Shown piece after piece: positions 8,399-53,580 of a stretch of DNA of 64,000 nt (positions are counted from its first letter, which is position 1; every line of letters begins with the position of its first letter). The stretch spans positions 4,457 through 68,456 of the forward strand of contig MFUM01000004.1 of NCBI GenBank assembly GCA_001786955.1, read 5' to 3'. The position numbers and the translations under genes are program-made. The stretch is from Candidatus Nomurabacteria bacterium RIFCSPHIGHO2_12_FULL_42_19 (GTDB lineage: Bacteria > Patescibacteriota > Minisyncoccia > Phycocordibacterales > UBA9973). A model generated the notes under the pieces. That model saw only the letters and a list, made by a program, of their open reading frames with translations, was not told where the DNA came from and made no database searches.

Positions 8399-9214
8399 AT
8401 GTCTATTCAAATCACCACAGAGCAAATAAAAGGGCTCCGCGATATGACTGGCATTTCGGTAATGCAATGTAAGCGCGCCTTGGAAGAAGCCGAAGGCGAT
8501 ATAAAAAAAGCGCTGGCTATCTTAAAAAAAACAAGCTCGGATATTGCGCTTAAAAAAGTTAATCGTGAAGTTAAAGACGGAAAAGTTTGCATTAAAACAG
8601 GAAACCTGCCTCCTGCCCGCGCAGGCGGGGCGCAGGCAGGTAAAAAAGCAGTCTTGGTGTCTTTGCGCTGTGAGACCGATTTTGTCGCCAGAAATGAAGA
8701 CTTCGCTAAGCTGCTGGAAAATCTTGCGGAAAAAGCGATAAAAGTCGGAGTAGAAGAAATGAAAAAGGAGGCCAAAGACATGATTGATGCTATAATCCAG
8801 AAAACCGGAGAAAATATCCAGCTTGGCGACACATATGAAGTAAATGGAGGTATTTTGGGAAATTACGTGCATAATAATAAGACTGGAGTTATCGTAAGCT
8901 TGACAGGGGGTGATGCGGAACTTGCAAAAGATATAGCCATGCACATAACTGCCATGAAGCCGGAATATATTTCGCAAGACGAAATAACAGAAGATGCCAG
9001 AAAAATAATGAAAGAAATTTTCGAAAAAGAAATAGCCAGTATGGACAAGCCTGCGGAAATAAAAGAGAAAATGCTTCTCGGAAAAATGGCGGCCTATTTC
9101 AAAGAAAAAACCCTGCTTGACCAGGCATTCATAAAAAACGGGGAAGAAACAGTGGGCCAGCTCCTGGAAAAAGCCAAGGCAAAAATAAAAGAAGTAAAAG
9201 CTTGCTTAATATAA
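8399..9214 (+). CDS. tsf: elongation factor Ts
   Basis: LRDMTGISVMQCKRALEEAEGDIKKA (UBA-like N-terminus), CETDFVARNEDF, HITAMKPEY. Confidence 0.9.
   Translation: MSIQITTEQIKGLRDMTGISVMQCKRALEEAEGDIKKALAILKKTSSDIALKKVNREVKDGKVCIKTGNLPPARAGGAQAGKKAVLVSLRCETDFVARNEDFAKLLENLAEKAIKVGVEEMKKEAKDMIDAIIQKTGENIQLGDTYEVNGGILGNYVHNNKTGVIVSLTGGDAELAKDIAMHITAMKPEYISQDEITEDARKIMKEIFEKEIASMDKPAEIKEKMLLGKMAAYFKEKTLLDQAFIKNGEETVGQLLEKAKAKIKEVKACLI
8605..8640. repeat. family B GC-rich palindromic insert (in frame in tsf)
   Basis: CCTGCCTCCTGCCCGCGCAGGCGGGGCGCAGGCAGG encodes LPPARAGGAQAG. It shares the GCGCAGGCAGG core with 35110-35131, 39984-40020 and 49558-49585. Confidence 0.7.
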
Positions 9215-14213: not shown

Positions 14214-15950
14214 TTATTTACGATTATTTTTAATATTCTCTTTTTTCTTATTCAATTCATTTATTTCCTTCAAAATCTTTTTACCTATTTCCTCATTAGA
14301 CGTTTGTCTTAATTCCAGCATTTTCTTGCTTAACTCTTCATTAATATTTTCTTCTTCAAGATTCAGAAACATCTCCGTTATGCTATTTTCTAATTTTTCG
14401 TTGTTCGTATAAAATACTTCTGCTTCGAATATAAGATCTTGTTTGACAACTTCATACTTTTTATAAACTTCTCCTAATTTTTCAAAAATTGCCTTAAAGT
14501 CTATAGCGGACGTTGGACGTCCGAGTTCCGGACGTCCAACGTCCGCTAAGCTTTGCTGCCAAAGAGCGATGCCCAAGAGTTTTCGCTCTATGTAATCTTT
14601 TCTGTACATCTTGGTTAAGCTCTCTCCCGCTTCCTTAATTTCTTCTTTTTCATATCTGAACTCTTGCTCAATTTTTTTTAAATCATCCTGTAATGCATTT
14701 TGAGATATGCCCGAAAGGTCGCTAATCTTTTTTATAAAATGCATTTTTTCTATCGAGCTTTCGAGCGCATTTACAAACGGTAATATTGTGCCTTTTATTT
14801 CCCTACCGGCCTTACGGGTGTCATTGCTATAATTTTTTAAAACTTTACTTAAAAGAAATTCTATAACGTGTTTAGAGTTTTTAATGGCTTCGCGCCAGGC
14901 ATCCGAACCCGTCTTCCCAATCAAATCCGCCGGATCGACACCATCAGGCATATCCACCACTTTTACATCCATCCCCAAAGAAAGAGCGATTTTGCCGGCA
15001 CGAATGGTCGCACTTGCCCCCGCCTTATCAGCATCAAAAGCAAGCACTAGATTCTCCGATAGGCGCCGCACCAGTCCTAAATTGCTTACAACATTTTCTT
15101 TTGAAACAGTAGAATCCGATAAAGCTGTGCCGGATGTCGCGATTGTGTTTTTATATCCCGCTTGATGCGATAATATCAAATCCATCTGACCTTCCACTAA
15201 AACAGAGAAGTTGTTCTTGCGGATGGAATCCTTAGCCTTATCAATTCCGTAAAGCACCGCATTTTTGCTGAAAATGGGCGTCTCGGGAGAGTTTAAATAT
15301 TTCGGTTCTCCTTCCCCTGTAATTCTTCCCGAAAACGCTATAACTCTTCCGCTTGAATCATTCATGGGAAACATAATTCTATTGCGAAAACGATCATAGT
15401 ATCCTTTCTCCGTTTTTTTAATTAGCCCGGCACGCTCTATTTCTAAATCACTAAAACCTGTCAACTTCAAGTGTTCATAAAGCGTCCGCCAGTCATCCTT
15501 CGCAAATCCAATACCAAAATCTTTGATTGTTTTTTCGCTCAGTCCTCGAGATTTTAAATATTCTATTTGTTTCGTTTCTAAGTTAGAAATAAAGAACTTC
15601 TCTGCTTTCTCCATCGCCCTGTATAATTTTTCTTTTTCGCTTTCCGCTTCTTTCATTTCTTTGCTGTAAGCCTTAAGAGGCACTCCGGCCCTATCTGCAA
15701 GAAGTTTTAATGCGCCTTTAAAATCAAGCCCTTCAAATTCCTCGACAAAGGTAAAAATATCACCCGACGCCCCGCAGCCAAAACAGTAATAAGTGCCGCG
15801 GTCGGGAGAAATGAAAAACGAAGGGGTTTTTTCATTGTGGAACGGGCATTTCGCCTTCAGGTTTACGCCTGTCTTCTCGAGCTTTATATAGGAAGAGACT
15901 ACTTCTTCAATCGATAGCCTCTCCTTAATTTTTTGTACGGGGGAATTCAT
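14214..15950 (-). CDS. dnaG: DNA primase
   Basis: Zinc finger [11 protein letters not shown]...CFGCG and a TOPRIM domain ([16 protein letters not shown]). Confidence 0.95.
14506..14546. repeat. family D perfect 18-bp inverted repeat, in frame in dnaG
   Basis: GCGGACGTTGGACGTCCG-agttc-CGGACGTCCAACGTCCGC encodes [14 protein letters not shown]. Confidence 0.7.
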
Positions 15951-23501: not shown

Positions 23502-24236
23502 TTATCTATTTTTCTTCCATTCCTCTATTTTTTTGTGGTTTCCAGAGAGTAAAACTTTCGGAACTTTGTAATTTTTATTCTTATATTTTAAAACTTCCGG
23601 GCGGGTGTAAACTTCACTACTAGAGACTCGTTCTTCTTCTAGTGATTCATATTTACCCAAAACCCTGGGAATCTGGCGAGAAATTGAGTCTATTAAAACC
23701 ATCGCCGGTAATTCGCCTCCGGTTAAGACATAATCCCCTATTGAAATATCTTCTGCCTTAAATATCTTTTTGACCCGCATATCTATGCCTTCATAACGGC
23801 CGGAAATCAAAATAATATCGGTGTATTTTTTTACGGAATTTTTTGCATATGCCGTATTAAATTTTTTACCGGATGGAGAAAAATTTATTATTTTAATTCT
23901 AGAGCGTTTAGAAAGTGTTCTTGCGAATGGTTGACGTTGCGTAGTAGGAAATCCTGAGCGAGAACACTTTCTAAGAGCGTATTCAATAGCCTTTAGCATC
24001 GGCTCGGCTCTCATCACCATTCCCGGCCCTCCGCCGTAAGGCTTATCATCTACCGGGCGATACCCATTGTCTTTAACCCTCCTCCGCTTAAAAGCTTCGG
24101 ACGGGCGAGTAAAATCCCGCGGATTGTAAAATTTCACTTCTATCAGCTTGTTCTTCAGAGCCCGTCCGACAATAGACTCATTTAGGTATGAACTGAACAT
24201 TTCTGGGAATATGGTAATAATGTGAAATTTAATCAT
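23502..24236 (-). CDS. trmD: tRNA (guanine37-N1)-methyltransferase
   Basis: ITIFPEMF, YGGGPGMVM, GRYEGID, IGDYVLTGGELPA. Confidence 0.9.
   Translation of the reverse strand: MIKFHIITIFPEMFSSYLNESIVGRALKNKLIEVKFYNPRDFTRPSEAFKRRRVKDNGYRPVDDKPYGGGPGMVMRAEPMLKAIEYALRKCSRSGFPTTQRQPFARTLSKRSRIKIINFSPSGKKFNTAYAKNSVKKYTDIILISGRYEGIDMRVKKIFKAEDISIGDYVLTGGELPAMVLIDSISRQIPRVLGKYESLEEERVSSSEVYTRPEVLKYKNKNYKVPKVLLSGNHKKIEEWKKNR
23908..23974. repeat. family E hairpin element, in frame in trmD
   Basis: 14-bp inverted repeat TTAGAAAGTGTTCT / AGAACACTTTCTAA around the core TGCGAATGGTTGACGTTGCGTAGTAGGAAATCCTGAGCG. Flanked by the direct repeat AGAGCGT. Sister copy at 38708-38769. Confidence 0.7.
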
Positions 24237-25145: not shown

Positions 25146-27167
25146 ATGAAGGAATCTAAAAACAAATTGCAAGGTATTATTTCCATCTCTTCAAAAGGCA
25201 CAGGCTATGTGGCAACCGGAGAAGTGAAGAATAAGGGCCAGGACCCGGAAATTGATTTCCAGCATTTAAATACCGCCCTGCACGGAGATATGGTAGAGAT
25301 AATCTTGCACCCGAAAGGTAAAAATCGCCAAACTGCTGAAGTTTCAAAAATAATATCGCGCGCAAAAATGAATTTCGCGGGAGTTCTGGAAGAAGAAAAC
25401 AAAATGTTCTTCCTGAAACCGGACGATACAAAAATGTATACAGATATTCTAATCCCAACCAAGTTTTTAAATAATGCGAAAGTTGGACAAAAGGTTTTTG
25501 TGGAAATAATTTCATGGAAAGATCCCCACAAGGCTCCGGAAGGAAAAGTAATAAAAGTTTTAGGCCGTCCGGGAGACAATGATACTGAAATGGAAAGTAT
25601 TGCGATAGAAAAAGGCTTTGATGCGAAACTTCCGCATAAAGTGGAAGAAGAAGCAAGGAAAATAAAGCAAAACGGCATTAAAGAAACCGACTATGCCGGA
25701 CGCAGAGATTTTCGCAAAACCCTGACCTTCACTATTGACCCCTCGGATGCGAAAGATTTTGATGATGCGATATCTTTCAGATTCCTCCCCTCCTTAAATA
25801 AGGAGGGGGCAGGGGGTGGTAATTCAAAAGACCACCCCGCCTCCGGCACCCCTCCTAAAAAAGGAGGGGAAGAGCAATATGAAGTCGGCATACACATCGC
25901 CGATGTCTCGCATTATGTAAAAATCGGCAGTGCTTTAGATGAAGAAGCGCGAGAAAGAGGAACTTCGGTATATTTGGTAGATAGGACGATACCAATGCTG
26001 CCGGAAACGCTTTCTAATGATTTGTGCTCTCTGGTGCCAAATAAAGACCGGCTTACTATGAGCGCAGTATTTATCATAGATAAAAATGCTCATGTAAAAA
26101 GCAAATGGTTCGGGCGCACGGTTATACATTCAAAAAAAAGATTTACTTACGAAGAAGCCGAGGAGTTAATAAAAAAATCCGCTGCGCCGTTCCATAAAGA
26201 ACTTTTTATCTTGAACAGCTTGGCAAAAAAATTAACCGGGGAAAGATTTGCGCAGGGCGCAATATCGCTTGACCAGGAAGAAGTAAAATTTGTTTTGGAT
26301 AAAAATGGAGTGCCGTTGAAAGTAATAAAAAAAGAGCGCGGCGATTCAAACAGGCTGATTGAGGAATTTATGCTCCTGGCAAATAAAAAAGTGGCGGAGG
26401 TCTTGTCTCCAAAAAATATAAAGGGTGTGAAAGATGAAGGCGTATCCATATACCGAGTGCACGATCTGCCGAGTAAGGAAAAAATGGCCGATCTGGCGTT
26501 TTTTTTGCGAAGTTTGGGACATAGAGTCTCCTTGCAGAACGGCCTTATCCCGACATATGAAATAAATAAGCTTCTAGAGAGTTTGGCCGGCAAAAATGAA
26601 GAAGATACGGTGCATCGCGCAGTTATCCGTTCTATGGCTAAAGCGCTTTATTCCACCAAAAATATCGGGCATTACGGTCTGGCTTTTCAATATTATACTC
26701 ACTTCACTTCCCCGATTAGGCGCTATCCGGACATCATGGTGCACAGACTTCTGGAAAAATTCCTCTCTGGCAAAAAAATAAAAAAGGAGGATTTAAAAGA
26801 GAAATTAATCGAATATGAAAAAATCGCCCTAAATGCATCCGAACAGGAAAAACGCGCCGCAGATGCCGAACGAGCTTCCATAAAATATAAACAAGTGGAA
26901 TATATGTCCAGATATCTGGGAAAAAGCTTCGACGGGGTAATCAGCGGGATAACCGAGTGGGGCATGTATGTGGAAGAACTAGAGACAAAATGCGAAGGTT
27001 TGGTGCGGGTACGTGATATGAATGACGATTTTTATATTTTCAATGAAAAAAAATTGGAATTAACCGGACAAAAAAAGAAAAAAAAGTACAGGCTCGGCGG
27101 CCGTGTCAAAATAAAAGTAAAATCGGTTGATTTGGAGAGAAAAACGATAGATTATATATTGACATGA
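25146..27167 (+). CDS. rnr: ribonuclease R
   Basis: RNB domain motifs (TIDPSDAKDFDDAIS, HIADVSHYV, YSTKNIGHYGLA..YTHFTSPIRRYPD) and a C-terminal S1 domain. The 24954 extension is rejected. Confidence 0.9.
   Translation: MKESKNKLQGIISISSKGTGYVATGEVKNKGQDPEIDFQHLNTALHGDMVEIILHPKGKNRQTAEVSKIISRAKMNFAGVLEEENKMFFLKPDDTKMYTDILIPTKFLNNAKVGQKVFVEIISWKDPHKAPEGKVIKVLGRPGDNDTEMESIAIEKGFDAKLPHKVEEEARKIKQNGIKETDYAGRRDFRKTLTFTIDPSDAKDFDDAISFRFLPSLNKEGAGGGNSKDHPASGTPPKKGGEEQYEVGIHIADVSHYVKIGSALDEEARERGTSVYLVDRTIPMLPETLSNDLCSLVPNKDRLTMSAVFIIDKNAHVKSKWFGRTVIHSKKRFTYEEAEELIKKSAAPFHKELFILNSLAKKLTGERFAQGAISLDQEEVKFVLDKNGVPLKVIKKERGDSNRLIEEFMLLANKKVAEVLSPKNIKGVKDEGVSIYRVHDLPSKEKMADLAFFLRSLGHRVSLQNGLIPTYEINKLLESLAGKNEEDTVHRAVIRSMAKALYSTKNIGHYGLAFQYYTHFTSPIRRYPDIMVHRLLEKFLSGKKIKKEDLKEKLIEYEKIALNASEQEKRAADAERASIKYKQVEYMSRYLGKSFDGVISGITEWGMYVEELETKCEGLVRVRDMNDDFYIFNEKKLELTGQKKKKKYRLGGRVKIKVKSVDLERKTIDYILT
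25784..25870 (+). repeat. family A element (modules Y then X), in frame in rnr
   Basis: CCTCCCCTCCTTaaatAAGGAGGGGGCAGGGGGTGGTaattcaaaagACCACCCCGCCTCCGGCACCCCTCCTaaaaaAGGAGGGG. A 30-nt stretch is identical to pheS 40782-40826. Confidence 0.8.
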
Positions 27168-29100: not shown

Positions 29101-31374
29101 TTATTTCGCAATTTGAGTAGCTTCTTCGAATTTTACCGAGAGAAGTTTGGAAGCTTCGTTGGAGCCGATGGTGACGCCGTAAAGAATTCCGGCTCTGGAC
29201 ATCGTTTCGCGGTTGTGGGTAACGACGATAAGCTGGGATTGCTTGGAGAGCTTCTCCAGCATATCCCCGTATTTTCGGGAGTTTGCTTCATCCAGCGCCG
29301 CATCCGTTTCGTCCAGCACCAAAAAAGGCGGCGGATTGACTTGCGACATAGCGAAAAGAAGGGCAATGGAAGTAAGCGACCTTTCTCCCCCGGAGAAAGC
29401 GTGAAGTTCCTTGACTTTCTTGCGCGGCAAAGAGACATTGATTTCTATTCCTTTTTCAATAACGATGTTCTCATCATCTTCTGATTCCCCCATTTCATCG
29501 TCATCTTCATTGATTTCATCAACTTTTTTCTTCTTAGTTTCAATAATAGAAATAGATCCGTGTCCGCCGCCAAACATTAATGAAAAGAATTCTTGAAACT
29601 CTACGTTGATTTTTTTGACACCTTCCTTGAATTCCGTATCTATTTTTTCCTTCAAATCAGCAATAAGTATAACCAGAGATTCAATGCTTTTGGATAAATC
29701 TTCCATTTCTTTCGTTAAAAATTGATCCCGCCCGGAAACTTCTTTATATTCCTTTATCAATTCCGCTCCGTTGCCCAGGCCCGTATCTTCTAATTTTATT
29801 TTTATGCGCTCAATTTTTTTCTTTTGGTCTTCTTGGTTATGCAATTCCCCGTTGTTTTCAATTTTATAGTCCTTATAAGAAAAAACTTCCCGTCCAATCA
29901 GGATTTCCCCTTCTTTTATCTCATTTTCAAAAGATTCGGCCCTATTTTTCAAATTCCCTTCTTTGATAGCCACAAGTTCCAGAGCGGAAGACAATTCTTG
30001 TTGTCTGACTCTCCAGGCAAATTTCTCCCGTTCAAGATCGCGTAAGGCCTCCATTTCCTTGTTTATTTCTTGTTTCAGTATCTCTATTGATTTGGCAATT
30101 TCTTTTTCTTTGCTTTCAATCCCTTTCATTTCTTCCAAGATTGCCTGCTGGGTTTTTTTTAGTTTTTCAATTTCTAAATTGTGGCTGGATTCATCCTTGT
30201 CATTTTGAGAGAATTTTTTCAAAATATTCTTAATACTCTCCAAAACGGGCCTAATCTCCTCAATACTTTCTTTTAAAAAAGCCAAATCTATAGAATTATT
30301 TATCTCACTGATTATGGCTTTGATTTCTTCCTGTGAAATTTCTATAAATAGGGATTTCTGTTCTTTCCTGCGTTCTTCCATTTCAACCATTCCCTCTATC
30401 CGCCCAAGCTTGCGTTCTATTTCACTTTTTACTCCGCGAAGGGAGTTGAGGCCTTCCTCAATTTTTCTCAATTCTTCTATTTTACCCCCACCCATCCTCC
30501 CCCTTATTAAGGGGGAGGTGTCAGAATGACGGAGGGGGTCGTTGTTTTCAACAATAGAAATTTTACCAGTTACATTTTTAAGTTCATTTGAAAGCTTGTT
30601 CCTTTCAGATGATAAATCGGCTTTCTCTTTCTCCAAAAAGATGCTTTCTTTCTTCAGATATTCCCCGTAAAGAGCCGTCAGCTCTGTTTGCATTTCTTTT
30701 GTTTTTTCAAATTTTTCCACCTGTTTCTTGAGAAAGTTAAGATGTGGGGCATTTTCCCGCCGCATTAAGGAAACCTCTTTCATGTTTTCATTCGTCCGTT
30801 CAAGTTTTCTCTCGCTTTCTTTTATCTTATATTGATAAATTTTAAGTCCCAAGGCATCTTCTACCATTTCTTTTTTTTCTCTTGCATTGGCGCTCAAAAT
30901 CCTGTCTGTCTCGCCCTGAGAAATAATGTGATGCCCGGAAGAACCTATGTTGACCGAGGCCAGCAAATTGTGAATATCCTTCAGTCTGACTTCTGTGCCA
31001 TTTAAAATATATTTATTCAACCCATCGGAAAAAACCTCGCGGGAAATTGAAATAACATCATAATTCAAATTAATATTCTCTCCCCCGTCATTGGAAAGCT
31101 TGAAAATTTTGTCGGAATTATTGAAATAGATGGTGACGGACGCCCGTGAGGCTTTTGGCAGATTTTTAGAACCTTTAAAAATGAGATCCGAACCGCCTTT
31201 TCCGCGCATGGATTTCATGGATTGTTCGCCCAAAACAAAGCGGATGGATTCCACCACATTGGATTTTCCGGATCCGTTCGGGCCGACAATGGAAACAATG
31301 GGATTTTCAAACTCTAAAACAGTTTTTTGGGCAAAAGACTTAAAACCATTTAGCTGGAGTGTTTTGAGCCGCAT
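29101..31374 (-). CDS. smc: SMC-like chromosome segregation ATPase, short (757 aa), no recognisable hinge
   Basis: Walker A GPNGSGKSN, signature LSGGERSL and Walker B LVLDETDAALD. The middle is coiled-coil. Confidence 0.8.
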   Translation of the reverse strand: MRLKTLQLNGFKSFAQKTVLEFENPIVSIVGPNGSGKSNVVESIRFVLGEQSMKSMRGKGGSDLIFKGSKNLPKASRASVTIYFNNSDKIFKLSNDGGENINLNYDVISISREVFSDGLNKYILNGTEVRLKDIHNLLASVNIGSSGHHIISQGETDRILSANAREKKEMVEDALGLKIYQYKIKESERKLERTNENMKEVSLMRRENAPHLNFLKKQVEKFEKTKEMQTELTALYGEYLKKESIFLEKEKADLSSERNKLSNELKNVTGKISIVENNDPLRHSDTSPLIRGRMGGGKIEELRKIEEGLNSLRGVKSEIERKLGRIEGMVEMEERRKEQKSLFIEISQEEIKAIISEINNSIDLAFLKESIEEIRPVLESIKNILKKFSQNDKDESSHNLEIEKLKKTQQAILEEMKGIESKEKEIAKSIEILKQEINKEMEALRDLEREKFAWRVRQQELSSALELVAIKEGNLKNRAESFENEIKEGEILIGREVFSYKDYKIENNGELHNQEDQKKKIERIKIKLEDTGLGNGAELIKEYKEVSGRDQFLTKEMEDLSKSIESLVILIADLKEKIDTEFKEGVKKINVEFQEFFSLMFGGGHGSISIIETKKKKVDEINEDDDEMGESEDDENIVIEKGIEINVSLPRKKVKELHAFSGGERSLTSIALLFAMSQVNPPPFLVLDETDAALDEANSRKYGDMLEKLSKQSQLIVVTHNRETMSRAGILYGVTIGSNEASKLLSVKFEEATQIAK
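30484..30540 (-). repeat. family A module X copy, in frame in smc
   Basis: The coding strand GACCCCCTCCGTCATTCTGACACCTCCCCCTTAATAAGGGGGAGGATGGGTGGGGG encodes DPLRHSDTSPLIRGRMGGG. Confidence 0.65.
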
Positions 31375-33041: not shown

Positions 33042-33075
33042 AAAATAATGAACGGGGTGAACAATTTGTCAATTC

Positions 33076-33133
33076 ACCTCACCCCCGACCCCTCTCCTTA
33101 TCAAGGAGAGGGGTGCCAAAGGCGGGGTGAGGT
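33076..33133 (-). repeat. family A module Y-like nested hairpin, intergenic (between rpmF and nusB)
   Basis: Outer stem ACCTCACCCC/GGGGTGAGGT. Inner stem CCCCTCTCC-ttatcaa-GGAGAGGGG. Confidence 0.65.
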
Positions 33134-33432: not shown

Positions 33433-35208
33433 ATGGAAAAGACTGAAAAACTAGGCAATTTAAGGCATACTCTGGCTCACCTGCTCGCATCGGCCATCGG
33501 AGAGATTTATAAATTTGATAAAATCAAACTTACCCTCGGTCCGGCCATAGATAATGGCTTTTATTATGATATTGATTTTTGCGGCGAAAAAATGACCGAT
33601 GCGGATTTGAAAAAAATTGAAGATAAAATGCGGAAAAATTTGCCTAAATGGACAGAATGGGAACATAAAGAAATAAGCAAGGACGAAGCGTTAGAATTTT
33701 TCAAAAACGAATACAAGGCGGAATTAATAAATGAAATCGCCCTACGCGGAGAGAAAATTACTACTTATACTTGCGGAGGATTTACTGATTTATGCCGTGG
33801 TGGACACTTGGCGCATCCGTCTAAAGAAATAGATCCGGATTCTTTCAAGCTGGACCGCGTGGCCGGCGCTTACTGGCGAGGAGATGAGAAGAACAAAATG
33901 CTCACCCGAATTTACGGATTGGCTTTTGAGACCAAAGAAGAACTGGATGCATATTTAACACAAAGAGAGGAAGCAGAAAAAAGAGACCATCGAAAGCTCG
34001 GACAAGAGCTTGATATTTTTATTTTTGATGACGATGTCGGCCCGGGACTTCCGCTTTGGTTGCCAAATGGCGCCGTGATTATTGAAGAACTGGAAAAATT
34101 AGCAAAAGAAACGGAAGAAAAAGCCGGATATGTTCGTGTGCGCACTCCCCATATTGCCAAAGAATCAATGTATAAAAAAAGCGGGCATTTGCCTTATTAT
34201 GCAGACAGCATGTATTCGCCGATGGACTGTGAAGGAGAAAATTACTATCTCAAAGCGATGAATTGCCCGCACCATCATAAAATTTTTGCCGCGCGGCCAA
34301 AAAGCTATCGTGATTTGCCCCTGCGGCTTGCCGAATATGGCACAGTCTATCGTTATGAAAAATCCGGAGAACTTTTCGGGCTTATGCGCGTACGCTCCCT
34401 CTCAATGAATGACGCGCATATTTATTGTTCGGAAAAACAATTCGCGAATGAATTTCGCGCAGTTAATGAAATGTATCTTAAATATTTTAAAATTTTCGGA
34501 GTTGAAAAGTATATAATGCGATTCTCTACCCATGATCCGAAAGAACTTGGAAAAAAATATGTGGACGAACCGGAGCTCTGGCTGAAAACGGAAAAAATGG
34601 TCCGTGATGTTCTGATTGAATCAAAAATTCCATATGTTGAGGTGCCGAATGAAGCGGCTTTTTATGGGCCAAAAATAGATGTGCAAGTCTGGAGTGCTAT
34701 TGGGAAAGAGTTTACTCTGGCCACCAACCAGGTTGATTTTGCAGTGCCTAAGCGTTTTGATTTAACATTCACAAATAAAGAAGGCAAGGCAGAAACTCCG
34801 CTTTGTATCCATCGTGCGCCGCTCGGCACCCATGAAAGATTTATCGGCTTCTTGATTGAGCATTATGCCGGCATCTTCCCTCTTTGGCTCTCGCCAGTGC
34901 AGGTAAAAGTAATTCCTGTCCGCACAAATCATAATGAATATGCGAAGCAGATTTTTGAATTATTAAAAGAAAATAACATCCGTGCGGAATTGGATGATAG
35001 CGATGAAAACCTCGGCACAAAAGTCCGCGATGCAAAAAATAAAAAAATGCCTTACTGGATAGTCATCGGCGACAAAGAAATAGAAGCAAAAAAAGTAACT
35101 CTTGAATCCCGCCTGCCTGCGCAGGCAGGCGACGCTGGACAATTAGGACAAATTTCAAAAGAAGAACTCGTCGCAAAACTTGTGGCCGAGGTCAAAATTA
35201 AAATATAA
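33433..35208 (+). CDS. thrS: threonyl-tRNA synthetase lacking the N-terminal TGS domain
   Basis: Starts at the editing-domain HTLAHLL motif. Class II core and a C-terminal anticodon-binding domain. TATAAA lies 6 nt before the ATG at 33433. Confidence 0.93.
   Translation: MEKTEKLGNLRHTLAHLLASAIGEIYKFDKIKLTLGPAIDNGFYYDIDFCGEKMTDADLKKIEDKMRKNLPKWTEWEHKEISKDEALEFFKNEYKAELINEIALRGEKITTYTCGGFTDLCRGGHLAHPSKEIDPDSFKLDRVAGAYWRGDEKNKMLTRIYGLAFETKEELDAYLTQREEAEKRDHRKLGQELDIFIFDDDVGPGLPLWLPNGAVIIEELEKLAKETEEKAGYVRVRTPHIAKESMYKKSGHLPYYADSMYSPMDCEGENYYLKAMNCPHHHKIFAARPKSYRDLPLRLAEYGTVYRYEKSGELFGLMRVRSLSMNDAHIYCSEKQFANEFRAVNEMYLKYFKIFGVEKYIMRFSTHDPKELGKKYVDEPELWLKTEKMVRDVLIESKIPYVEVPNEAAFYGPKIDVQVWSAIGKEFTLATNQVDFAVPKRFDLTFTNKEGKAETPLCIHRAPLGTHERFIGFLIEHYAGIFPLWLSPVQVKVIPVRTNHNEYAKQIFELLKENNIRAELDDSDENLGTKVRDAKNKKMPYWIVIGDKEIEAKKVTLESRLPAQAGDAGQLGQISKEELVAKLVAEVKIKI
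35110..35131. repeat. family B perfect 22-bp palindrome, in frame in thrS
   Basis: CGCCTGCCTGCGCAGGCAGGCG encodes RLPAQAGD. Confidence 0.7.
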
Positions 35209-36291: not shown

Positions 36292-38397
<2,106 letters not shown>

Positions 38398-38412: not shown

Positions 38413-40269
38413 TTACCGCACTTGCCAACCATTATTCTCCTTGATTTTATTGGTTATTTGAGTCATAACTGCATTTATTTCCGCATCTGTAAGAGTCCTA
38501 TCAAAAGACTGGAAAACTACCCTAAAAGCATAAGAGATTTTATCGTCCTTTTTAAACTCATCAAAGAGTTCCGGGCCACGAATTGCAAGACTTCCGGCAT
38601 TATTTTTTATAATTTTTTCTACATCTTTACTTTTAACTCCCTCCGGCACCCAGACGGCAATATCGCGTGCGATAAAAGGAAACAAGGACCACATCTTAAA
38701 AGCTCCGCCTGTGTGCTTTTGCGAACGGTGACGTTGCGAAGCAGGATATTCCTGAGCAAAAGCATCAGGCGAGGCTGATTTACAAAATTCTTCAAGACTC
38801 ATTTCTTTTACTTCTTTTTTATTTCCATAAGCCACATTCATTTCTTCCCCGCTCTTTTTAAACACCGTTCCAATTTCAAAAATTTTTATTTCGTCCATCC
38901 CCAACAAAGGCACGTTGAGTTGGTTTAATTTCAAACTTTCCTTCAGTCCGTCAGTCAGATTCGTCCGCAAAAATTTTTTATCCGAAGCGCTCTGCATCAC
39001 TTCCACTTCCCCACTATTACAAAAAGTATAAGTCATTACTTCACTATATCCTTCGCCGAGCAATTTATTTCTCGCCCAGGAAATCTTCGCATAAGTTTCA
39101 TTTACTTTTGTTTTAAAATTAATTTTTGGTATTTTTCCTTTTACTTTGTCATAGCCAATAATCCTTCCGATTTCTTCTGCCATATCTTCCTCAATTACTA
39201 AATCAAGCCGCATCGGTGGCACGGTGATTACGTATTCTTCTCCCCCTGCTAAGGGGGAGTGCCCATCGGGCGAGGGGGTCTTTGTATATTCAAAGTTATA
39301 TCTTTTCAAAATATCTTCCACTTGAGACACAGAAATGTCCAAACCAAGAATTTTTGAAATTTTTTCCACCGAGAAAGAAAGCTTTCTGATCTCCTGTTTT
39401 TGGGGATAGACATCGACAATGTTTTCAAAAATAGCTTCCGGACACATTTCTAAAATAAGCGCCGATAATTCCAGCATAGCGTGCGGGCCAAGTTCCGGAG
39501 ATAAATCGTTTTCAAAGCGCTTGCGTGCGTCCGTAAATATATTCAAAGCCTGCGCGGTTTTTCTTACGGAAGTTGGATTAAAATTAGCAACTTCCAGAAT
39601 TATATCTTTTGTATTATTATCTACTTCCGCAATTTTCCCGCCCTTGATGCCAGCAATGGCTAAGACATTCTTATCGTCCGAAATGACCATATTTGAAGAT
39701 TTGAACTTTATTTCTTTATTGTCCAGGGTGGTCATCTCCTCGCCGTCTTTACCGTTTCGGACAATTATGTCGCCCTGTATTTTATCCAAATCAAAAGCAT
39801 GTGCGGGCTGACCGCAATCAAACATCACAATATTCGCCGCATCTACCACATTATTTATGCTTCTCTGCCCTATTGACTCCAGATGCTTTATGACCCATTC
39901 CGGACTGGTGCCAATTTTAATATTCTTTACAATTCTCCCCATATATCTTCTACATTTATCTGATTGGACATCAATTTTTAATTCTGCCTGCCCCGCCGGA
40001 GCCTTGGGCGCAGGCGGGGGAATTTTATACTTCGGAGCAGGATCAACATACTTTATATTTAAAAGTGAAGCGAGTTCACGCGCCACGCCCTGGTGGCTAA
40101 GTAAATCATGCGCGCGGTTTGGCAAGATTTTCAAATCAAAAATATTATCATCCCCTTTTTTCTCTAAACTCTCAACTTCACAAAGATGGTAATTAAAAAC
40201 ATCCACAAATTTTTCTGCATCAGGTGCTTCCGGTATATACCATTTGAGCCAATTGTAAGAAATCAACAT
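38413..40269 (-). CDS. pheT: phenylalanyl-tRNA synthetase beta subunit (short form)
   Basis: B3/4, B5 and FDX-ACB-like C-terminal regions. Directly downstream of pheS. Confidence 0.9.
   Translation of the reverse strand: MLISYNWLKWYIPEAPDAEKFVDVFNYHLCEVESLEKKGDDNIFDLKILPNRAHDLLSHQGVARELASLLNIKYVDPAPKYKIPPPAPKAPAGQAELKIDVQSDKCRRYMGRIVKNIKIGTSPEWVIKHLESIGQRSINNVVDAANIVMFDCGQPAHAFDLDKIQGDIIVRNGKDGEEMTTLDNKEIKFKSSNMVISDDKNVLAIAGIKGGKIAEVDNNTKDIILEVANFNPTSVRKTAQALNIFTDARKRFENDLSPELGPHAMLELSALILEMCPEAIFENIVDVYPQKQEIRKLSFSVEKISKILGLDISVSQVEDILKRYNFEYTKTPSPDGHSPLAGGEEYVITVPPMRLDLVIEEDMAEEIGRIIGYDKVKGKIPKINFKTKVNETYAKISWARNKLLGEGYSEVMTYTFCNSGEVEVMQSASDKKFLRTNLTDGLKESLKLNQLNVPLLGMDEIKIFEIGTVFKKSGEEMNVAYGNKKEVKEMSLEEFCKSASPDAFAQEYPASQRHRSQKHTGGAFKMWSLFPFIARDIAVWVPEGVKSKDVEKIIKNNAGSLAIRGPELFDEFKKDDKISYAFRVVFQSFDRTLTDAEINAVMTQITNKIKENNGWQVR
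38708..38769. repeat. family E hairpin element, in frame in pheT
   Basis: TGCTTTTGC / GCAAAAGCA arms around the core TGCGAACGGTGACGTTGCGAAGCAGGATATTCCTGAGC. Compare trmD 23908-23974. Confidence 0.65.
39237..39280 (-). repeat. family A module X copy, in frame in pheT
   Basis: The coding strand GACCCCCTCGCCCGATGGGCACTCCCCCTTAGCAGGGGGAGAAG encodes TPSPDGHSPLAGGEE. Confidence 0.65.
39984..40020. repeat. family B-like GC-rich insert, in frame in pheT
   Basis: CTGCCTGCCCCGCCggagccttgggcgcaGGCGGGGG encodes PPPAPKAPAGQAE. Confidence 0.55.
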
Positions 40270-40280
40270 AAATTAAGTTA

Positions 40281-41072
40281 TTAAAACTGATTGAGGCGTA
40301 AATCTCCCTGATAAAAAAGTCTAACATCCGGAATACCCCATTTAATCATAGCAATACGGTCCAATCCTCCGCCGAAAGCAAAACCTTGGTATTTTTTAGG
40401 GTCCAAGCCGCAATTTTTGAGTACATTTGGGTGTAAAACACCTGAACCCATCATCTCAAGCCACTTCCCTTTGAACTTGGCGAAAACTTCCAGAGATGGT
40501 TCGGTAAAAGGGAAAAAACTGGGGCGAAATTCTACCTCCACATCATCACTCAACATTTTTTTGTAAAAATGGGTTAATACGCCCTTCAAATCAGCAAGGG
40601 AAACATTTTCTCCCACCATTGCTCCGTCTATCTGATAAAATTGCATTTCGTGCGTTGCATCCGTAGCTTCGTTGCGGAAAACTTTTCCGATGGAAATAAA
40701 AGCGGCTGGCAATCTGCCGTCTTTGCCCGCTTGCTCAATCGCGCGGGCGGTTACGGTCGTCGTATGTGTTCGCAACACAGATTTTGAATTACCACCCCCT
40801 GCCCCCTCCTTATCAAGGCGGGGAGGATTCTTTTCTCCTCCTGCCTGAGGAGGAGTGCCCGAAGGACGAGGTGGTTCTTTTATCCAAAATGTATCCTGCA
40901 TATCCAGCGCCGGATGGTCTTTCGAAAAATTCAAGGCGTAAAAGTTATACCAGTCGCTCTCCAGCTCCGGCCCGGTCGCGATTTCAAAACCAAGCTCCGA
41001 AAAAGCCCGATAAGCCTCCTCGGCTAACAGAGAAAGCGGATGTATTGTGCCCTTTTTTATGTCTTCGTTCAT
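40281..41072 (-). CDS. pheS: phenylalanyl-tRNA synthetase alpha subunit (catalytic core only)
   Basis: Class II motifs (LRTHTT, FRNEATDATH, GFAFGGGLDRIAM). The N-terminal coiled coil is absent. Confidence 0.9.
   Translation of the reverse strand: MNEDIKKGTIHPLSLLAEEAYRAFSELGFEIATGPELESDWYNFYALNFSKDHPALDMQDTFWIKEPPRPSGTPPQAGGEKNPPRLDKEGAGGGNSKSVLRTHTTTVTARAIEQAGKDGRLPAAFISIGKVFRNEATDATHEMQFYQIDGAMVGENVSLADLKGVLTHFYKKMLSDDVEVEFRPSFFPFTEPSLEVFAKFKGKWLEMMGSGVLHPNVLKNCGLDPKKYQGFAFGGGLDRIAMIKWGIPDVRLFYQGDLRLNQF
40782..40875 (-). repeat. family A element (modules X then Y), in frame in pheS
   Basis: The coding strand ACCACCTCGTCCTTCGGGCACTCCTCCTCAGGCAGGAGGAGAAAAGAATCCTCCCCGCCTTGATAAGGAGGGGGCAGGGGGTGGTAATTCAAAA encodes PPRPSGTPPQAGGEKNPPRLDKEGAGGGNSK. 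Confidence 0.8.
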
Positions 41073-44818: not shown

Positions 44819-47014
44819 TTATAACATACTTAAAAATTCTTTCTCGCTTAATATTTTTACACCCAGCTTTTCGGCAACTTTAAGCTTGGAGCCCGGGTCC
44901 GCTCCGGCTACGATATAGGAAGTATTTTTTGAGACGGAACCCGCGACTTTCCCTCCGAGAGCCAGGATTCTTTCTTTAGCAATTTCTCGGGACATTTGGG
45001 AAAGCGTCCCGGTCAAAACGAAATGTAATTCGGTAAATTTGTCGGCTTTCTTTTTTTCCGCTCTTTCCACGATTACGCCATTTCTTTGCAATTTTTTTAT
45101 GAAATTCAAATTATTTTTATTATTAAAAAAATCATAAACGCTTTTTGATACAGCCGGGCCGATGTTTTCTATACTATCTATCTCAGCAAGGACTCCCCTT
45201 GCTGAAGTTATTAATTTTTCCAGAGTGCCAAAGTGTAGCGCTAAATCTCTTGCTGTTTCCTCCCCCACATGCAGGATTCCGAGCGCCCACAGAAAGCGTG
45301 AAAAAGGGATTTTCTTTTTATTTTTTATTTCATTGATTATGTTTTCCGCCGATTTTTCCCCAAAGCGTTCCAGGAGCGCTATATCTTCTTTTTTAAGGGT
45401 GAAAATGTCGGCTGCGTCGGTAATGAGCCCTTCGTCCTTGAATCTTCTCAGTATTTTCGGGCCTAATTCATAAATTTCAAAGACAGAAACAAAATGCTCT
45501 AAATACCTTTCGTTTTTTGCCGGGCATTTAGGATTGCTGCAATAATGAGCGACAGAGATATTCTCCAGCTCGCAAGATTTCTGAGTCGCGTAAGTCCCAC
45601 CCGGTACCCCGGGAAGGGTCAAGCGCGAAGAAATCTCGTGAGCCGAAGAATCCCCCATCTTTTTCTTCCTAACTTTTCCTCCGCAGGCCGGGCATTTGTC
45701 CGGCATTTTGAATTTTTTTTCTTTGCCTGTCCGCATCCGAATCAGCACCTCCACTACTTTCGGTATCACATCGCCGGCTTTTTCTATCACGACCGTATCC
45801 CCGATACGCAAATCAAGGCGCTCTATCTGGTCCATATTATGGAGAGTAGCCTTGGACACCCGGGAACCCGCCACCAGCGTCGGCTCAAAAAGAGCGAGCG
45901 GTGTCAATACACCGGTACGCCCGACATTTACCTTTATATCCTTTACTATTGTTGTCGCTCTTTCCGCCGGATATTTGAATGCCACCATAAAGCGCGGCGC
46001 CTTGCCGACCACCCCTAGTGTCTCCTGTAATTTCAAATCGTCCACCGAGACAACGACGCCGTCCGTGCCGTAGAGAAAATCGGGCCTGATTTTTTCAAAT
46101 TTCTTTATGAAAGTAAACACTTCATTCATATTAGCGCACAGAGCCTCCAATTTCTCAACTTTAAATCCAATCCTGCGGAGCATTTGATGTTTTTCGGAGT
46201 GGGTTTGCATAGCCGAATCATGAATTTTCTGAGTCGCGTAAGTCCCACCCCGTACTCGGGGAAGGGTCAAGCGCGAAGAAAATTCATGATTCGGCGTAGC
46301 CTCGGCTATATCGTAAGCAAAAAAATCCAATTCCCTTTTGGCGGCTAATTTTGGATCCAGCTGCCGCAAACTTCCTGCCGCGGCATTTCGGGTATTGGCA
46401 AAAAGGGGTTTTCCTTTTTTCTCATTTTCTTTATTCAATTTAACGAGCATTTCTTTGCTCAAAAGCGCTTCTCCGCGGATTTCCAGGTGCGGAAGGTATG
46501 GTTTTTGGAGAAGAAGTGGAATTGAATGTATGGTTTTGAGATTTTGGGTTATGTCTTCCCCAATTAATCCGTCTCCTCTCGTTGCGCCGCGCATAAACTT
46601 GCCATTTTCATAAACAAGCGAAACTGCCAACCCGTCAAACTTGACTTCGCAAAAATAATTAAATTTCGCGCGCGCAGGTAAAAGCTTTTTGATTCTTGTT
46701 TCCCACTCATATAATTCTGTCTCACTAAAAGCATCATTAAGAGAAAGCATGCGGGTTTTGTGCTGAACTTTTACAAATTTATTAAGCGGTTTGCCGGCTA
46801 CTCTGTTTTCCGGAGCATTTAAATCGTTAAATTCGGGGTATTTTTTCAAAAGCTCTTTAAGCTCGTGAGTGAGAGAATCGTAAACATCGTCGGTTACACC
46901 GGGGGCGTTTTGGGTATGATATAAATCACGCAAACGCGCGATTTCTTTTCGTAATTTTTTTACCCGCTTGGATTCGGCGAGGCTGGTTCTTTTTTTATCT
47001 TCCACCTCTTTCAT
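44819..47014 (-). CDS. ligA: NAD-dependent DNA ligase
   Basis: Adenylation motif CEVKFDGLA, OB fold, Zn finger CPACG...CSNPKCPAK, HhH and BRCT domains. About 60 aa longer than usual because of two inserts. Confidence 0.95.
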   Translation of the reverse strand: MKEVEDKKRTSLAESKRVKKLRKEIARLRDLYHTQNAPGVTDDVYDSLTHELKELLKKYPEFNDLNAPENRVAGKPLNKFVKVQHKTRMLSLNDAFSETELYEWETRIKKLLPARAKFNYFCEVKFDGLAVSLVYENGKFMRGATRGDGLIGEDITQNLKTIHSIPLLLQKPYLPHLEIRGEALLSKEMLVKLNKENEKKGKPLFANTRNAAAGSLRQLDPKLAAKRELDFFAYDIAEATPNHEFSSRLTLPRVRGGTYATQKIHDSAMQTHSEKHQMLRRIGFKVEKLEALCANMNEVFTFIKKFEKIRPDFLYGTDGVVVSVDDLKLQETLGVVGKAPRFMVAFKYPAERATTIVKDIKVNVGRTGVLTPLALFEPTLVAGSRVSKATLHNMDQIERLDLRIGDTVVIEKAGDVIPKVVEVLIRMRTGKEKKFKMPDKCPACGGKVRKKKMGDSSAHEISSRLTLPGVPGGTYATQKSCELENISVAHYCSNPKCPAKNERYLEHFVSVFEIYELGPKILRRFKDEGLITDAADIFTLKKEDIALLERFGEKSAENIINEIKNKKKIPFSRFLWALGILHVGEETARDLALHFGTLEKLITSARGVLAEIDSIENIGPAVSKSVYDFFNNKNNLNFIKKLQRNGVIVERAEKKKADKFTELHFVLTGTLSQMSREIAKERILALGGKVAGSVSKNTSYIVAGADPGSKLKVAEKLGVKILSEKEFLSML
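45568..45642 (-). repeat. family C hairpin element copy 1, in frame in the ligA Zn finger (75 nt)
   Basis: Outer arms GCTCGCAAGATTTC/GAAATCTCGTGAGC. Core TTCTGAGTCGCGTAAGTCCCACCCGGTACCCCGGGAAGGGTCAAGCGCGAAGAAA. Confidence 0.8.
46212..46295 (-). repeat. family C hairpin element copy 2, in frame in the ligA adenylation region (84 nt)
   Basis: Perfect 17-bp arms GCCGAATCATGAATTTT/AAAATTCATGATTCGGC. The core differs from copy 1 at 3 positions. Confidence 0.8.
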
Positions 47015-49238: not shown

Positions 49239-50063
49239 CTAAAAAAGACGCAATTCAAAAAGAAACGCCAAGAGCGCGCCTAAAACCAGATATGGAGCAA
49301 AGGGAATTTCGCTTTTTATTCCGTATTTTTTAGAAAAAACAACAAGAGAAAGACCGACAATGGCCCCAAGCCAGAAAGCGACCACAAGGCCGGAGAATGC
49401 GCGCGCGAGCCCAAGCAGCCATCCCAAGCCGACTGCCAGTTTGGCATCCCCCAGCCCCATCCAAGTTCCGGAAGACACGAGCCAAAATAAATAAAAAGGT
49501 AAAGCAATCAAGAAGCCGGACAAAAATTCCAAAATTGAAGGCATGTGCGGATAAAAACCTGCCTGCGCCCAGCCTGCGCTGGCAGAAGACAGGCCAGAAT
49601 TGTTAAAAAAGAATAAGCCGATAAAACCAAGAGCGCCTAAGGCAAAAGCGAGCGAGTCGGGGATTATTTTATGCCGGAGGTCGTAGACGGCAATAACCAC
49701 CAGAAGCGCGAATATCGCGGCATAATAAGCATAAGCGATAATAAATGCGGGAGTAAAAAAACTAAACTGTCCGCCCAGGGCGGAAAACTTTAAAAAGAGC
49801 GCCGCAAAAATCAGGCCGGTCGCCAGCTCGACCAAAGGATAGGAAATTGAGATTCTTGTTTTGCAGGTTCGGCATCTACCTCCCAAAACAAAAAAACTTG
49901 CGAGCGGGACAAGCTCATACCAGCAAAGAGTATTCTGACAGGACATACAGGCGCTTCTCCCGCCGAAGGATCTCTCGGTGTTCAGCCGGGCAATGACAAC
50001 ATTTAAAAAACTTCCGATAATCAGGCCAAAAAAAAAGAAAATAATTGTAACTACAATGATCAT
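49239..50063 (-). CDS. pilD: prepilin peptidase (A24 family)
   Basis: N-terminal Cys motif CMSC...CRTC and a catalytic Asp context (GLGDAKL). Confidence 0.9.
   Translation of the reverse strand: MIIVVTIIFFFFGLIIGSFLNVVIARLNTERSFGGRSACMSCQNTLCWYELVPLASFFVLGGRCRTCKTRISISYPLVELATGLIFAALFLKFSALGGQFSFFTPAFIIAYAYYAAIFALLVVIAVYDLRHKIIPDSLAFALGALGFIGLFFFNNSGLSSASAGWAQAGFYPHMPSILEFLSGFLIALPFYLFWLVSSGTWMGLGDAKLAVGLGWLLGLARAFSGLVVAFWLGAIVGLSLVVFSKKYGIKSEIPFAPYLVLGALLAFLFELRLF
49558..49585. repeat. family B GC-rich insert, in frame in pilD
   Basis: CCTGCCTGCGCCCAGCCTGCGCTGGCAG. pilD peptide SASAGWAQAG. Confidence 0.55.
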
Positions 50064-51112: not shown

Positions 51113-51163
51113 AATCTTAATTTCTAAACTAAATTAATAATAATTAATAATGCAATTTCGACT

Positions 51164-51190
51164 CCCGCCTGCTCCCATAGGGCGGGCAGG
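51164..51190. repeat. family B-like hairpin, intergenic between pilC and pilA
   Basis: CCCGCCtgctcccatagGGCGGGcagg. Confidence 0.45.
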
Positions 51191-51241
51191 TATTTTTAAT
51201 ACGTTCATTATAACATATATGCAAAAAAGTTATCCACACCC

Positions 51242-52521: not shown

Positions 52522-53580
52522 TTATATCAAGCGCTCAAGCCCTTTTGGATTAAGCGAATATTGATAAGCGTTATCTATGGAAATTTCCCCGGCGCGCACA
52601 AGCTCTATCAATGAATGATTCAAATCCACCATTCCGGATTCCATTCCCGTTTCAATAACCACATCTATTTCGTGCGTGCGTTTTTCGCGGATTAAGTTGG
52701 CAACCGCATTATTATTCAAAAGAAGCTCATAAGCCGGAATAAGCCCGCCCGCAATTCTGGGAATAAGCCTCTGGGAAAAAATACCGAGCAGGCTGGCTGC
52801 AAGCTGGGCGCGGATTTGGTCCTGCTGGTCGCCCGGAAAAGAGTCAATTATCCTGTCAATGGTCTGGGAGGCGTTATTGGTATGTAGGGTTGAAAGCACG
52901 AGATGCCCCGTCTCAGCCGCCGTTACAGCGGTTGCAATGGTTTCCGGATTGCGCATCTCACCTACCATTATTACGTTCATATCTTCGCGAAAAGCCGATT
53001 TTAGCGCCGTATGAAAATCTTTCGTATCAATACCGACTTCACGCTGACTAACAATAGATTTGTCGGGCGTGTATACATGTTCAATCGGATCTTCTATGGT
53101 TATTATATTACGCGCTTGTTCATTGTTAATTACATTAATCATTGCCGATAAAGTGGTTGACTTGCCTTGTCCGACAGGACCAACAACCAGAAAAAAACCC
53201 TGTTTCTTGCGGGCTAAATCGGCCAAAATGGGAGGCAGACGCAATTCTGTCATAGTCTGAACTTTAGGCACTAGTCTGAAAACTATATTAATCAAGCCTT
53301 TTTGGTAAAAGGCATTGCCGCGCAGTCTCGCTTTGCCGCGAAAATCATAAGAAAAATCGGCTTCTTGGTTTTCCTTAAATCTGTCAATTTTTTCTTTTTC
53401 CAGTATTTCGCCCAAAAATCCCAACATATCTTCTTGGGTCAAGACCGGATGCTTGGCAAGAAAAATAAGTTCTCCGGATACGCGGATAGCCGGCGCGCGC
53501 CCGGCGCCCAAATGCAAATCCGAGCCATTTTCGTGAATAACATTCAAAACAAGTTCTTCAAGTTCTTTTTTATAATCCAT
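52522..53580 (-). CDS. pilT: twitching motility ATPase PilT
   Basis: GPVGQGKSTT, ITIEDPIE and TGHLVLSTLHTNNA, in 352 aa. Confidence 0.9.
   Translation of the reverse strand: MDYKKELEELVLNVIHENGSDLHLGAGRAPAIRVSGELIFLAKHPVLTQEDMLGFLGEILEKEKIDRFKENQEADFSYDFRGKARLRGNAFYQKGLINIVFRLVPKVQTMTELRLPPILADLARKKQGFFLVVGPVGQGKSTTLSAMINVINNEQARNIITIEDPIEHVYTPDKSIVSQREVGIDTKDFHTALKSAFREDMNVIMVGEMRNPETIATAVTAAETGHLVLSTLHTNNASQTIDRIIDSFPGDQQDQIRAQLAASLLGIFSQRLIPRIAGGLIPAYELLLNNNAVANLIREKRTHEIDVVIETGMESGMVDLNHSLIELVRAGEISIDNAYQYSLNPKGLERLI

Follow-up and report, generated by a model that had tools for sequence, protein, structure and literature searches.

Introduction

Among the closest described parallels to the element reported here are the Rickettsia palindromic elements (RPEs), in-frame palindromic repeats of about 100-150 nt (Ogata et al. 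2000 and 2002, as summarised in PMC10969869), of which 44 insertions have been reported genome-wide in R. conorii (PMC10969869). The subject of this work is an 87-nt, G+C-rich palindromic element at positions 25784-25870 of a stretch of 64,000 nucleotides from Candidatus Nomurabacteria bacterium RIFCSPHIGHO2_12_FULL_42_19 (contig MFUM01000004.1), referred to below as the 64-kb window, where it lies in frame in the gene for ribonuclease R (RNase R). The block is probably a non-autonomous palindromic mobile element, a miniature member, devoid of any open reading frame (ORF), of a family associated with DUF559 genes, and a DUF559 protein may have been responsible for its movement into RNase R.

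As with RPEs, copies occur in frame in unrelated housekeeping genes of a reduced genome, their presence varies among relatives, and the peptide that they add is apparently compatible with the protein fold. The likeness is one of behaviour, and the element is treated here as an analogue of RPEs rather than a member: its host belongs to the Nomurabacteria and not to Rickettsia, it is shorter (87 nt, with units of ~40 nt), and its pyrimidine/purine hairpins with a G-rich tail occur in many phyla, whereas RPEs occur in one genus. A candidate partner gene, that for DUF559, can also be named here; we know of no partner gene for RPEs.

The second comparison is with REPINs, doublets of REPs (repetitive extragenic palindromic sequences), and their REP-associated tyrosine transposases (RAYTs). 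In both systems two inverted copies of a short palindromic unit together form a long hairpin, and copies are dispersed (PMC3116915, PMC3337134). Singlets look like decayed doublets in both, and the associated gene lies between units of its own. In REPINs, however, this gene encodes a Y1 transposase, and here a predicted Vsr-like PD-(D/E)XK nuclease; REPINs are lineage-specific and vertically inherited, whereas the copies here lie inside ORFs and cross phyla. The present system thus behaves like RPEs and REPINs, but with a different candidate enzyme and a cross-phylum unit.

Miniature inverted-repeat transposable elements are likewise short and ORF-less, with terminal inverted repeats, many copies and occasional in-frame fusions, but here no target-site duplication is visible between the diverged empty and filled sites, the ends are themselves hairpins, and the longer relatives carry DUF559 instead of a known transposase. 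Organellar genomes provide further parallels. The GC clusters of yeast mitochondria are comparable G+C-rich palindromes of unrelated sequence. The coding palindromes of Nematomorpha mitochondria (PMC6649704) are also embedded in the reading frames of protein genes, in genomes that are A+T-rich and reduced, but they are organellar, unrelated in sequence and have no associated nuclease family. A last parallel is with Vsr-like (EDxHD) homing endonucleases such as I-Bth0305I and with 'fractured genes'; these endonucleases belong to the same structural group as DUF559, and their genes are selfish and free-standing, with hairpins just upstream of the start codon (PMC2677866, PMC3424549). Those genes occupy phage introns and inteins and split their hosts, whereas here a small ORF-less doublet spreads and the host genes stay intact.

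A preliminary description of the locus knew of no report of such behaviour in a reduced genome like those of the Candidate Phyla Radiation (CPR). In agreement with this, no description of CPR coding palindromes, nor of DUF559 linked to dispersed hairpins, was found in the open-access papers and preprints searched.

The element in RNase R

The host ORF, whose product is 100% identical to the RNase R of Candidatus Nomurabacteria bacterium GW2011_GWC2_41_8, gave a full-length match to the Pfam RNB family (2e-106). In the RNB domain the element sits after catalytic motif I (DAKDFDDA) and before the strand YEVGIHIADV. Its stems were located by an exhaustive scan for perfect G+C-rich stems. This confirmed the in-frame, G+C-rich triple hairpin of the preliminary description, with the sequence as quoted there: three perfect hairpins of 8-9 bp lie within 87 nt. 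The G+C content of the element is 58.6%, against 40.4% in the remainder of the gene and ~41% in the window. G+C islands by themselves failed to pick out elements in the window; the hairpin scan did so.

The preliminary description had divided the block into two kinds of module, X and Y. This division does not hold, as the second half is the reverse complement of the first half (hairpin-linker-GGGGGTGGT) and the two are therefore one unit in inverted orientation. The copies, named units A and B (Table 1), are kept apart by a 10-nt central loop. In general form the unit is ~40 nt long: a pyrimidine arm and then a purine arm enclose a loop of 3-6 nt, and a linker of 2-12 nt leads on to the G-rich tail.

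As the two tails face each other and pair, two folds are open to the element, one with three hairpins and one with a single long hairpin. Folded as DNA it gave the three hairpins (-28.6 kcal/mol, z = -5.8), and folded as RNA the minimum was the single long hairpin (-54.8 kcal/mol, z = -5.8); in each case 0 of 200 shuffles were as stable. An Rfam scan of the element returned only sub-threshold, microRNA-like matches to long hairpins, none of them real.

Insertion polymorphism in RNase R

The state of the site was scored between DDAISF and HIADVS in the 120 RNase R proteins closest to this one, with identities of 74-100%. A short 'empty' form (e.g. REVNESEYEVGI), a turn of 4 residues, was found in 54 of them. 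Both halves of the element were present in 16 proteins, the first half only (unit A; LPSLNKEGVGGG) in 17 and the second half only (unit B; RPPRPSGTPPSQGE) in 11, and the remaining 22 had unrelated palindromic inserts or short remnants, e.g. RILGGEVYEIGI. The orthologues without the ~26 extra codons include P0002, the nearest homologue (85% identical). When placed on a rough neighbour-joining tree, filled and empty states were scattered and ~31 changes were needed. The DNA of seven related loci showed that each type of insert is itself a palindrome or hairpin, and alignment of their syntenic genes revealed further lineage-specific inserts of like kind in rpoB, trmD, thrS and others.

In the solved RNase R structures, 8cdu of B. 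subtilis and 5xgu of E. coli, the insert site is taken up by a turn of 4-5 residues, and the HMMER alignment to these chains splits precisely at the insert. In an AlphaFold2 model built from a 40-sequence alignment the insert is a coil between two strands, with a predicted local distance difference test (pLDDT) score below 50 for the RNB domain. No distant lineage carries a linker of this kind, which speaks against the ancestral linker that had been named as the alternative to an insertion. These comparisons show that the 87-nt block is an insertion in RNase R and that the site is an insertion hotspot.

An artefact of assembly or binning, or a local palindrome arising from replication slippage, might be suspected, as the genome is a metagenome assembly, repeats frequently misassemble and many contigs with DUF559 genes are 0.5-2 kb long. 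Against this, the identical RNase R protein occurs on 27 contigs from several sources, filled orthologous alleles are present in many independent assemblies and the reading frame is intact. Nor could local slippage give rise to the 32-nt identical copy in pheS and the cross-genome consensus described below. An artefact or slippage, including the chimera against which the preliminary description had cautioned, is thus extremely improbable.

Other copies in the window

The 30-nt stretch of the element that had been reported to recur exactly in pheS does so, on the minus strand (40782-40811), and the identity extends to 32 nt (40782-40813); no such match was seen in 100 shuffles. The pheS copy is also a doublet, which shares these 32 identical nt with the RNase R element but has the opposite order of units. 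Among 120 PheS relatives the majority have MQDTFWIK-x5-VLRTHTT at this position, seven have the B+A doublet and many have other palindromes. The pheS site behaves like the RNase R site.

The related copies previously suggested in pheT, smc and an intergenic spacer were also located (Table 1), so that four of the five copies of the unit in the window are within ORFs. Units resembling the intergenic copy were found in two related loci (L002 and L007), placed differently relative to the neighbouring genes. A census of the window for perfect pyrimidine/purine hairpins with stems of 7 bp or more gave 7, compared with 0.1 expected from local shuffles. Stem pairing is kept between copies despite changes on both sides, e.g. 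CCCCTCCT/AGGAGGGG compared with CTCCTCCT/AGGAGGAG.

Such two-sided changes, together with the very stable RNA fold, could be taken to mean that the insert is retained because it is useful to the host, either as mRNA structure (pausing, stability, or mimicry of a Shine-Dalgarno or anti-Shine-Dalgarno sequence) or as a functional loop of RNase R. Preserved pairing is equally expected, however, if the ends are needed for mobility. The insert is absent from the 54 orthologues above, others have unrelated palindromes at the same place, and the same element is also found in unrelated genes and spacers. A benefit to the host is accordingly considered quite unlikely as the explanation, and mobility of the element is preferred.

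Table 1 Positions in the window of the RNase R gene, its palindromic element and the other copies of the unit
Feature	Position	Strand	Description
RNase R host gene	25149..27167	+	CSD2, RNB and S1 domains; start codon approximate
Palindromic element	25784..25870	+	Inverted doublet of one hairpin-plus-tail unit; in frame; encodes LPSLNKEGAGGGNSKDHPASGTPPKKGGEE
Unit A of RNase R element	25785-25821		Hairpin, then tail GGGGGTGGT
Hairpin 1 of RNase R element	25787..25808	+	CCCCTCCT(T)-loop-(A)AGGAGGGG; 9 bp counting the T-A pair
Hairpin 2 of RNase R element	25813..25838	+	Unit A tail GGGGTGGT pairs with unit B tail ACCACCCC
Unit B of RNase R element	25831-25870		ACCACCCC, linker, hairpin
Hairpin 3 of RNase R element	25849..25869	+	CCCCTCCT-aaaaa-AGGAGGGG
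smc copy	30484..30540	-	In frame; hairpin CCTCCCCCTT/AAGGGGGAGG; C-rich tail 5', GGGTGGGGGT 3'; encodes DPLRHSDTSPLIRGRMGGG
Intergenic copy	33075..33133	+	Between nusB-like gene and thrS; ACCTCACCCC tail, hairpin CCCCTCTCCTT/AAGGAGAGGGG, GGGGTGAGGT tail
pheT single unit	39240..39280	-	In frame; GACCCCCTC tail, 12-nt linker, hairpin CTCCCCCT/AGGGGGAG; encodes TPSPDGHSPLAGGE
pheS doublet	40782..40875	-	In frame; units ordered B then A, tails outward; encodes PPRPSGTPPQAGGEKNPPRLDKEGAGGGNSK

Spread across bacterial phyla

A 19-base pattern, AAGGAGGGGGNNGGGGGTGGT, was scanned over one genome per GTDB species, giving 129 listed occurrences in at least 120 loci. Almost all of these 129 have the matching upstream arm CCCCTCCTT and a variable loop of 3-6 nt, and the arm was not required by the pattern. 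The hosts among the listed matches include Acidobacteriota, Ignavibacteriota, Kapaibacteria, Bacteroidota, Desulfobulbaceae, Geobacter, Sphingomonadales, Armatimonadota, Nitrospirota, Chloroflexota and several CPR lineages, as well as isolates of Pontibacter, Larkinella, Pedobacter, Erythrobacter and Novosphingobium. The same A-spacer-B doublets are seen in Terriglobia, and several genomes have multiple copies of the unit. A strict regular expression for doublets misses many real copies because A-rich loops blur the boundaries of the arms.

Approximately 29 of the 129 occurrences are within long open frames. Nine genes with an in-frame unit or doublet were confirmed with Pfam, those for UvrB, TsaD, MnmA, LigA, HsdM, DapF, CoaBC, ApbA and a class V aminotransferase, in CPR, Kapaibacteria, Ignavibacteriota and Bacteroidota (including Chitinophaga). 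The unit family is not confined to the CPR and occurs in many bacterial phyla.

The proposal in the preliminary description, that the block is an RPE-like selfish repeat tolerated in frame, is thus supported by the comparisons of orthologues and assemblies and by the further copies in the window and in many genomes. It has to be amended in that the family is not specific to the CPR but spans phyla and is linked to DUF559.

Two genes have three separate hairpin-peptide inserts each, LigA of a member of the Nomurabacteria (L054; PPSPLQGEGQGGEV, NPLLNKEGVGGG and SSPLVKGGIEGGW) and CoaBC of a Kapaibacterium (L093). At ten loci (L033, L035, L044-L046, L052, L075, L077, L102 and L120), from the uncultured bacterium SRP142039_co1_38 and an Armatimonadota metagenome-assembled genome (MAG), the unit is nested in a longer conserved repeat (...attatattatcaagtaactaccataa-unit-ttggttgattatataattag...), which suggests a larger composite element built on the same hairpin.

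Phage are unlikely as the main carrier: IMG/VR contained only 6 matches to the motif and 10 relatives of DUF559, and a phage collection gave 3 DUF559 matches.

A true REP or REPIN, mobilised by a RAYT (a Y1, IS200-like enzyme) as in Pseudomonas and enterobacteria, would have the build seen here, in which two inverted palindromic units form a long hairpin and both singlets and doublets occur (PMC3116915). One of the related loci, L002, does encode an IS200-like Y1 transposase (15035-15772; PF01797 at 1e-7). Its flanks, however, carry repeats of their own (cgactacgga and ttacggaggc) that are unrelated to the CCCCTCCTT unit, and it was rejected as the cognate enzyme for this reason. Among the 15 largest clusters of ORFs examined near the 129 listed occurrences none was Y1-like, and the largest was DUF559. 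REPs are, moreover, extragenic and lineage-specific, whereas the RNase R unit is intragenic and common to many phyla. The inverted doublet and hairpin of a REPIN are thus present, but the copies in the window are mostly inside ORFs and no unit-flanked Y1 (RAYT) gene was found among these clusters or in L002, and an origin as a REP or REPIN is very unlikely.

Association with DUF559 genes

The ORFs within 2.5 kb of the motif were clustered across the listed loci. The largest family shared near the motif was a protein of ~120 residues that corresponds to Pfam DUF559 (PF04480, 6.5e-31). Twelve such genes were found at 11 loci, and a unit precedes the start codon of each by 5-60 nt. The protein matches PDB 3hrl, an 'endonuclease-like protein', and D53, E64, D66, H70 and D79 are invariant in the 12 aligned sequences. 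DUF559 is predicted to be a Vsr-like PD-(D/E)XK nuclease, and the Vsr/DUF559 structural group includes I-Bth0305I, a proven homing endonuclease (PMC3424549, PMC2677866).

As genes found through the motif are a biased sample, 80 metagenome loci were retrieved solely on protein similarity to DUF559. Perfect pyrimidine/purine hairpins with stems of 7 bp or more were found within 150 nt upstream of 56 of 74 DUF559 genes (76%) and within 150 nt downstream of 43 of 65 (66%). Elsewhere in these loci 215 kb contained 13 such hairpins, a background of 0.009 per 150 nt. The upstream and downstream flanks are mutual inverted repeats, 52% being above the 99th percentile of controls, and flank similarity is higher within one DUF559 gene than between genes (p = 1.8e-5). 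Hairpin units and DUF559 genes are associated in an inverted-repeat layout, of which the most frequent form is hairpin, G-tail, ORF, C-tail, hairpin. This is the RNase R doublet with an ORF replacing the 10-nt loop; in the full-length relatives the loop equivalent to hairpin 2 houses the DUF559 ORF.

In three CPR loci (L070, L128 and L130) a doublet near-identical to the RNase R insert abuts the start codon of DUF559, and Nomurabacteria MAGs encode DUF559 relatives 73-82% identical to the L070 protein (P0141 and P0236). Among cultured bacteria, flanking hairpins also occur at the DUF559 genes of Deinococcus, Picosynechococcus, E. coli and Neisseria. The family is large, with 23,953 representatives at E <=1e-3 (clusters at 50% identity). 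An Rfam scan of 20 DUF559 loci gave nothing but tRNAs.

Some individual loci merit description. In the E. coli homologue (L212), CCCTCTCCCT-gaaag-AGCGAGGGGG comes right after the stop codon. The DUF559 gene of Neisseria gonorrhoeae whose product was solved as PDB 3hrl (L213; NGO0050 region) has direct-repeat flanks containing a pyrimidine/purine hairpin. Where DUF559 representatives have long extensions at the N- or C-terminus, these run through hairpin peptides such as PLLxKEG and PPPxPSLxRRG; in many gene calls the extensions, of 30-60 residues, are translated flanking hairpins and hence an annotation artefact (P0121-P0240, P0361-P0510). The many DUF559 genes on contigs of merely 0.5-2 kb reflect an artefact of assembly that is expected beside repeats.

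The position of the hairpins allows for a different interpretation, that they serve mainly in the expression of DUF559 (as a ribosome-binding site sequestered in a hairpin, and as a 3' structure) and that ORF-less copies are footprints of deleted homing-endonuclease genes with no mobility of their own. The purine arm and tail are Shine-Dalgarno-like and, at many DUF559 genes, 5-25 nt distant from the start codon. In phage, free-standing genes for Vsr-like homing endonucleases likewise have upstream hairpins, and one locus retains its hairpin after loss of the gene (PMC2677866). The footprint route needs, however, essential single-copy genes (rnr, pheS, uvrB, tsaD, ligA) to have been split, and there is no split allele among the 120 RNase R or the 120 PheS relatives. 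The units are also far more numerous than DUF559 genes, and relative to the gene they are found in both orientations and at both flanks. Expression signals and footprints are thus an unlikely explanation of the ORF-less copies, and a mobile element associated with DUF559 is favoured.

Tolerance in coding sequence

Every stop codon holds a T and a purine, so that arms composed entirely of pyrimidines or of purines are free of stops in all six frames, and only loops and linkers can hold them. In the RNase R copy all stops of the other frames fall in a loop or spacer. The arms would encode Pro/Ser/Leu/Phe followed by Lys/Glu/Gly/Arg, and the tail Gly. With this composition the peptide would be flexible and hydrophilic, and hence suited to a surface loop. 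It seems likely that it is translated and harmless to the host.

Proposed mechanism

Full-length members of the family consist of two inverted units with a DUF559 gene of ~120 codons between or beside them, and the RNase R copy would be a miniature version with 10 nt in the place of the ORF. We infer that a DUF559 nuclease, supplied from another part of the genome or by the community, would recognise the hairpin-plus-tail ends in trans, in their hairpin or cruciform form, and would nick or cut the DNA there; the element would then be copied or moved. In RNase R the point of insertion would be the turn of a beta-hairpin just past catalytic motif I of the RNB domain. Half elements and short remnants would be the products of later deletion. 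Only copies of suitable length in permissive surface loops would pass selection, and this would account for the repeated insertion of several palindrome families into the same loops of RNase R and PheS.

Several points weigh against this mechanism or limit the evidence for it. There is no DUF559 gene within the window. The association with DUF559 has no direction: existing doublets could be favoured sites for the insertion of DUF559 genes, or the hairpins could serve in the expression of these genes. The purine arm (AAGGAGG) and tail (GGAGGT/GGTGGT) resemble Shine-Dalgarno sequences and are properly spaced from many DUF559 starts, so that a conserved hairpin at the ribosome-binding site could explain part of the cross-phylum conservation. 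As the hairpin detector demands perfect pairing, the variety of stems is no independent test of covariation. Empty and filled RNase R sites are ~20% diverged, and neither a target-site duplication nor an exact boundary is definable between them. The neighbour-joining tree of RNase R is poorly resolved, which makes the count of events a rough one, and, as AlphaFold modelled the RNB domain poorly, the loop is placed at the surface by homology to the solved structures.

Further palindromes and repeats in the window

A second family of G+C-rich palindromes (CCTGCCTGCGC...GCGCAGGCAGG) is present at 8603-8643, 35110-35131, 39980-40025, 49557-49593 and 51157-51193. Its members are in frame in tsf (LPPARAGGAQAG), thrS (LPAQAG), pheT and a prepilin peptidase gene, and one copy is intergenic. 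The thrS copy is missing in four orthologues. Near the C-terminus of gyrB (36549-36572) a perfect in-frame hairpin, TCCCGAC...GTCGGGA, encodes 10 residues. The trmD gene (23850-23960, minus strand) has a window-specific insert of ~18 residues (KCSRSGFPTTQRQPFART); at this position L001 has a different insert and the remaining relatives have none.

Two longer repeats were also observed. A 64-nt direct repeat (91% identical; 45578-45641 and 46226-46289) lies inside the ORF at 44819-47014, and a 51-nt repeat (82%; 52871-52921 and 54520-54570) is shared by two adjacent ORFs. Both are probably internal or paralogous duplications.

Implications

If the explanation favoured here is correct, the phenomenon of selfish DNA within genes known from Rickettsia extends to the CPR, where it is apparently denser; the 64-kb window contains about nine in-frame palindromic inserts. 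A single hairpin unit would be common to many phyla. There would also be practical consequences, as such inserts inflate or distort the protein alignments of marker genes, break metagenome assemblies and create spurious N-terminal extensions on gene calls.

More tentatively, DUF559 proteins may be the nucleases of an unrecognised pan-bacterial class of hairpin-ended selfish elements, a Vsr-like parallel of REPIN-RAYT, whose stop-free miniatures colonise the surface loops of essential proteins, densely in the CPR. The explanation favoured here would also give a testable role to DUF559, a large family of unknown function, with culturable carriers in Deinococcus, Picosynechococcus PCC 7002 and Pontibacter.

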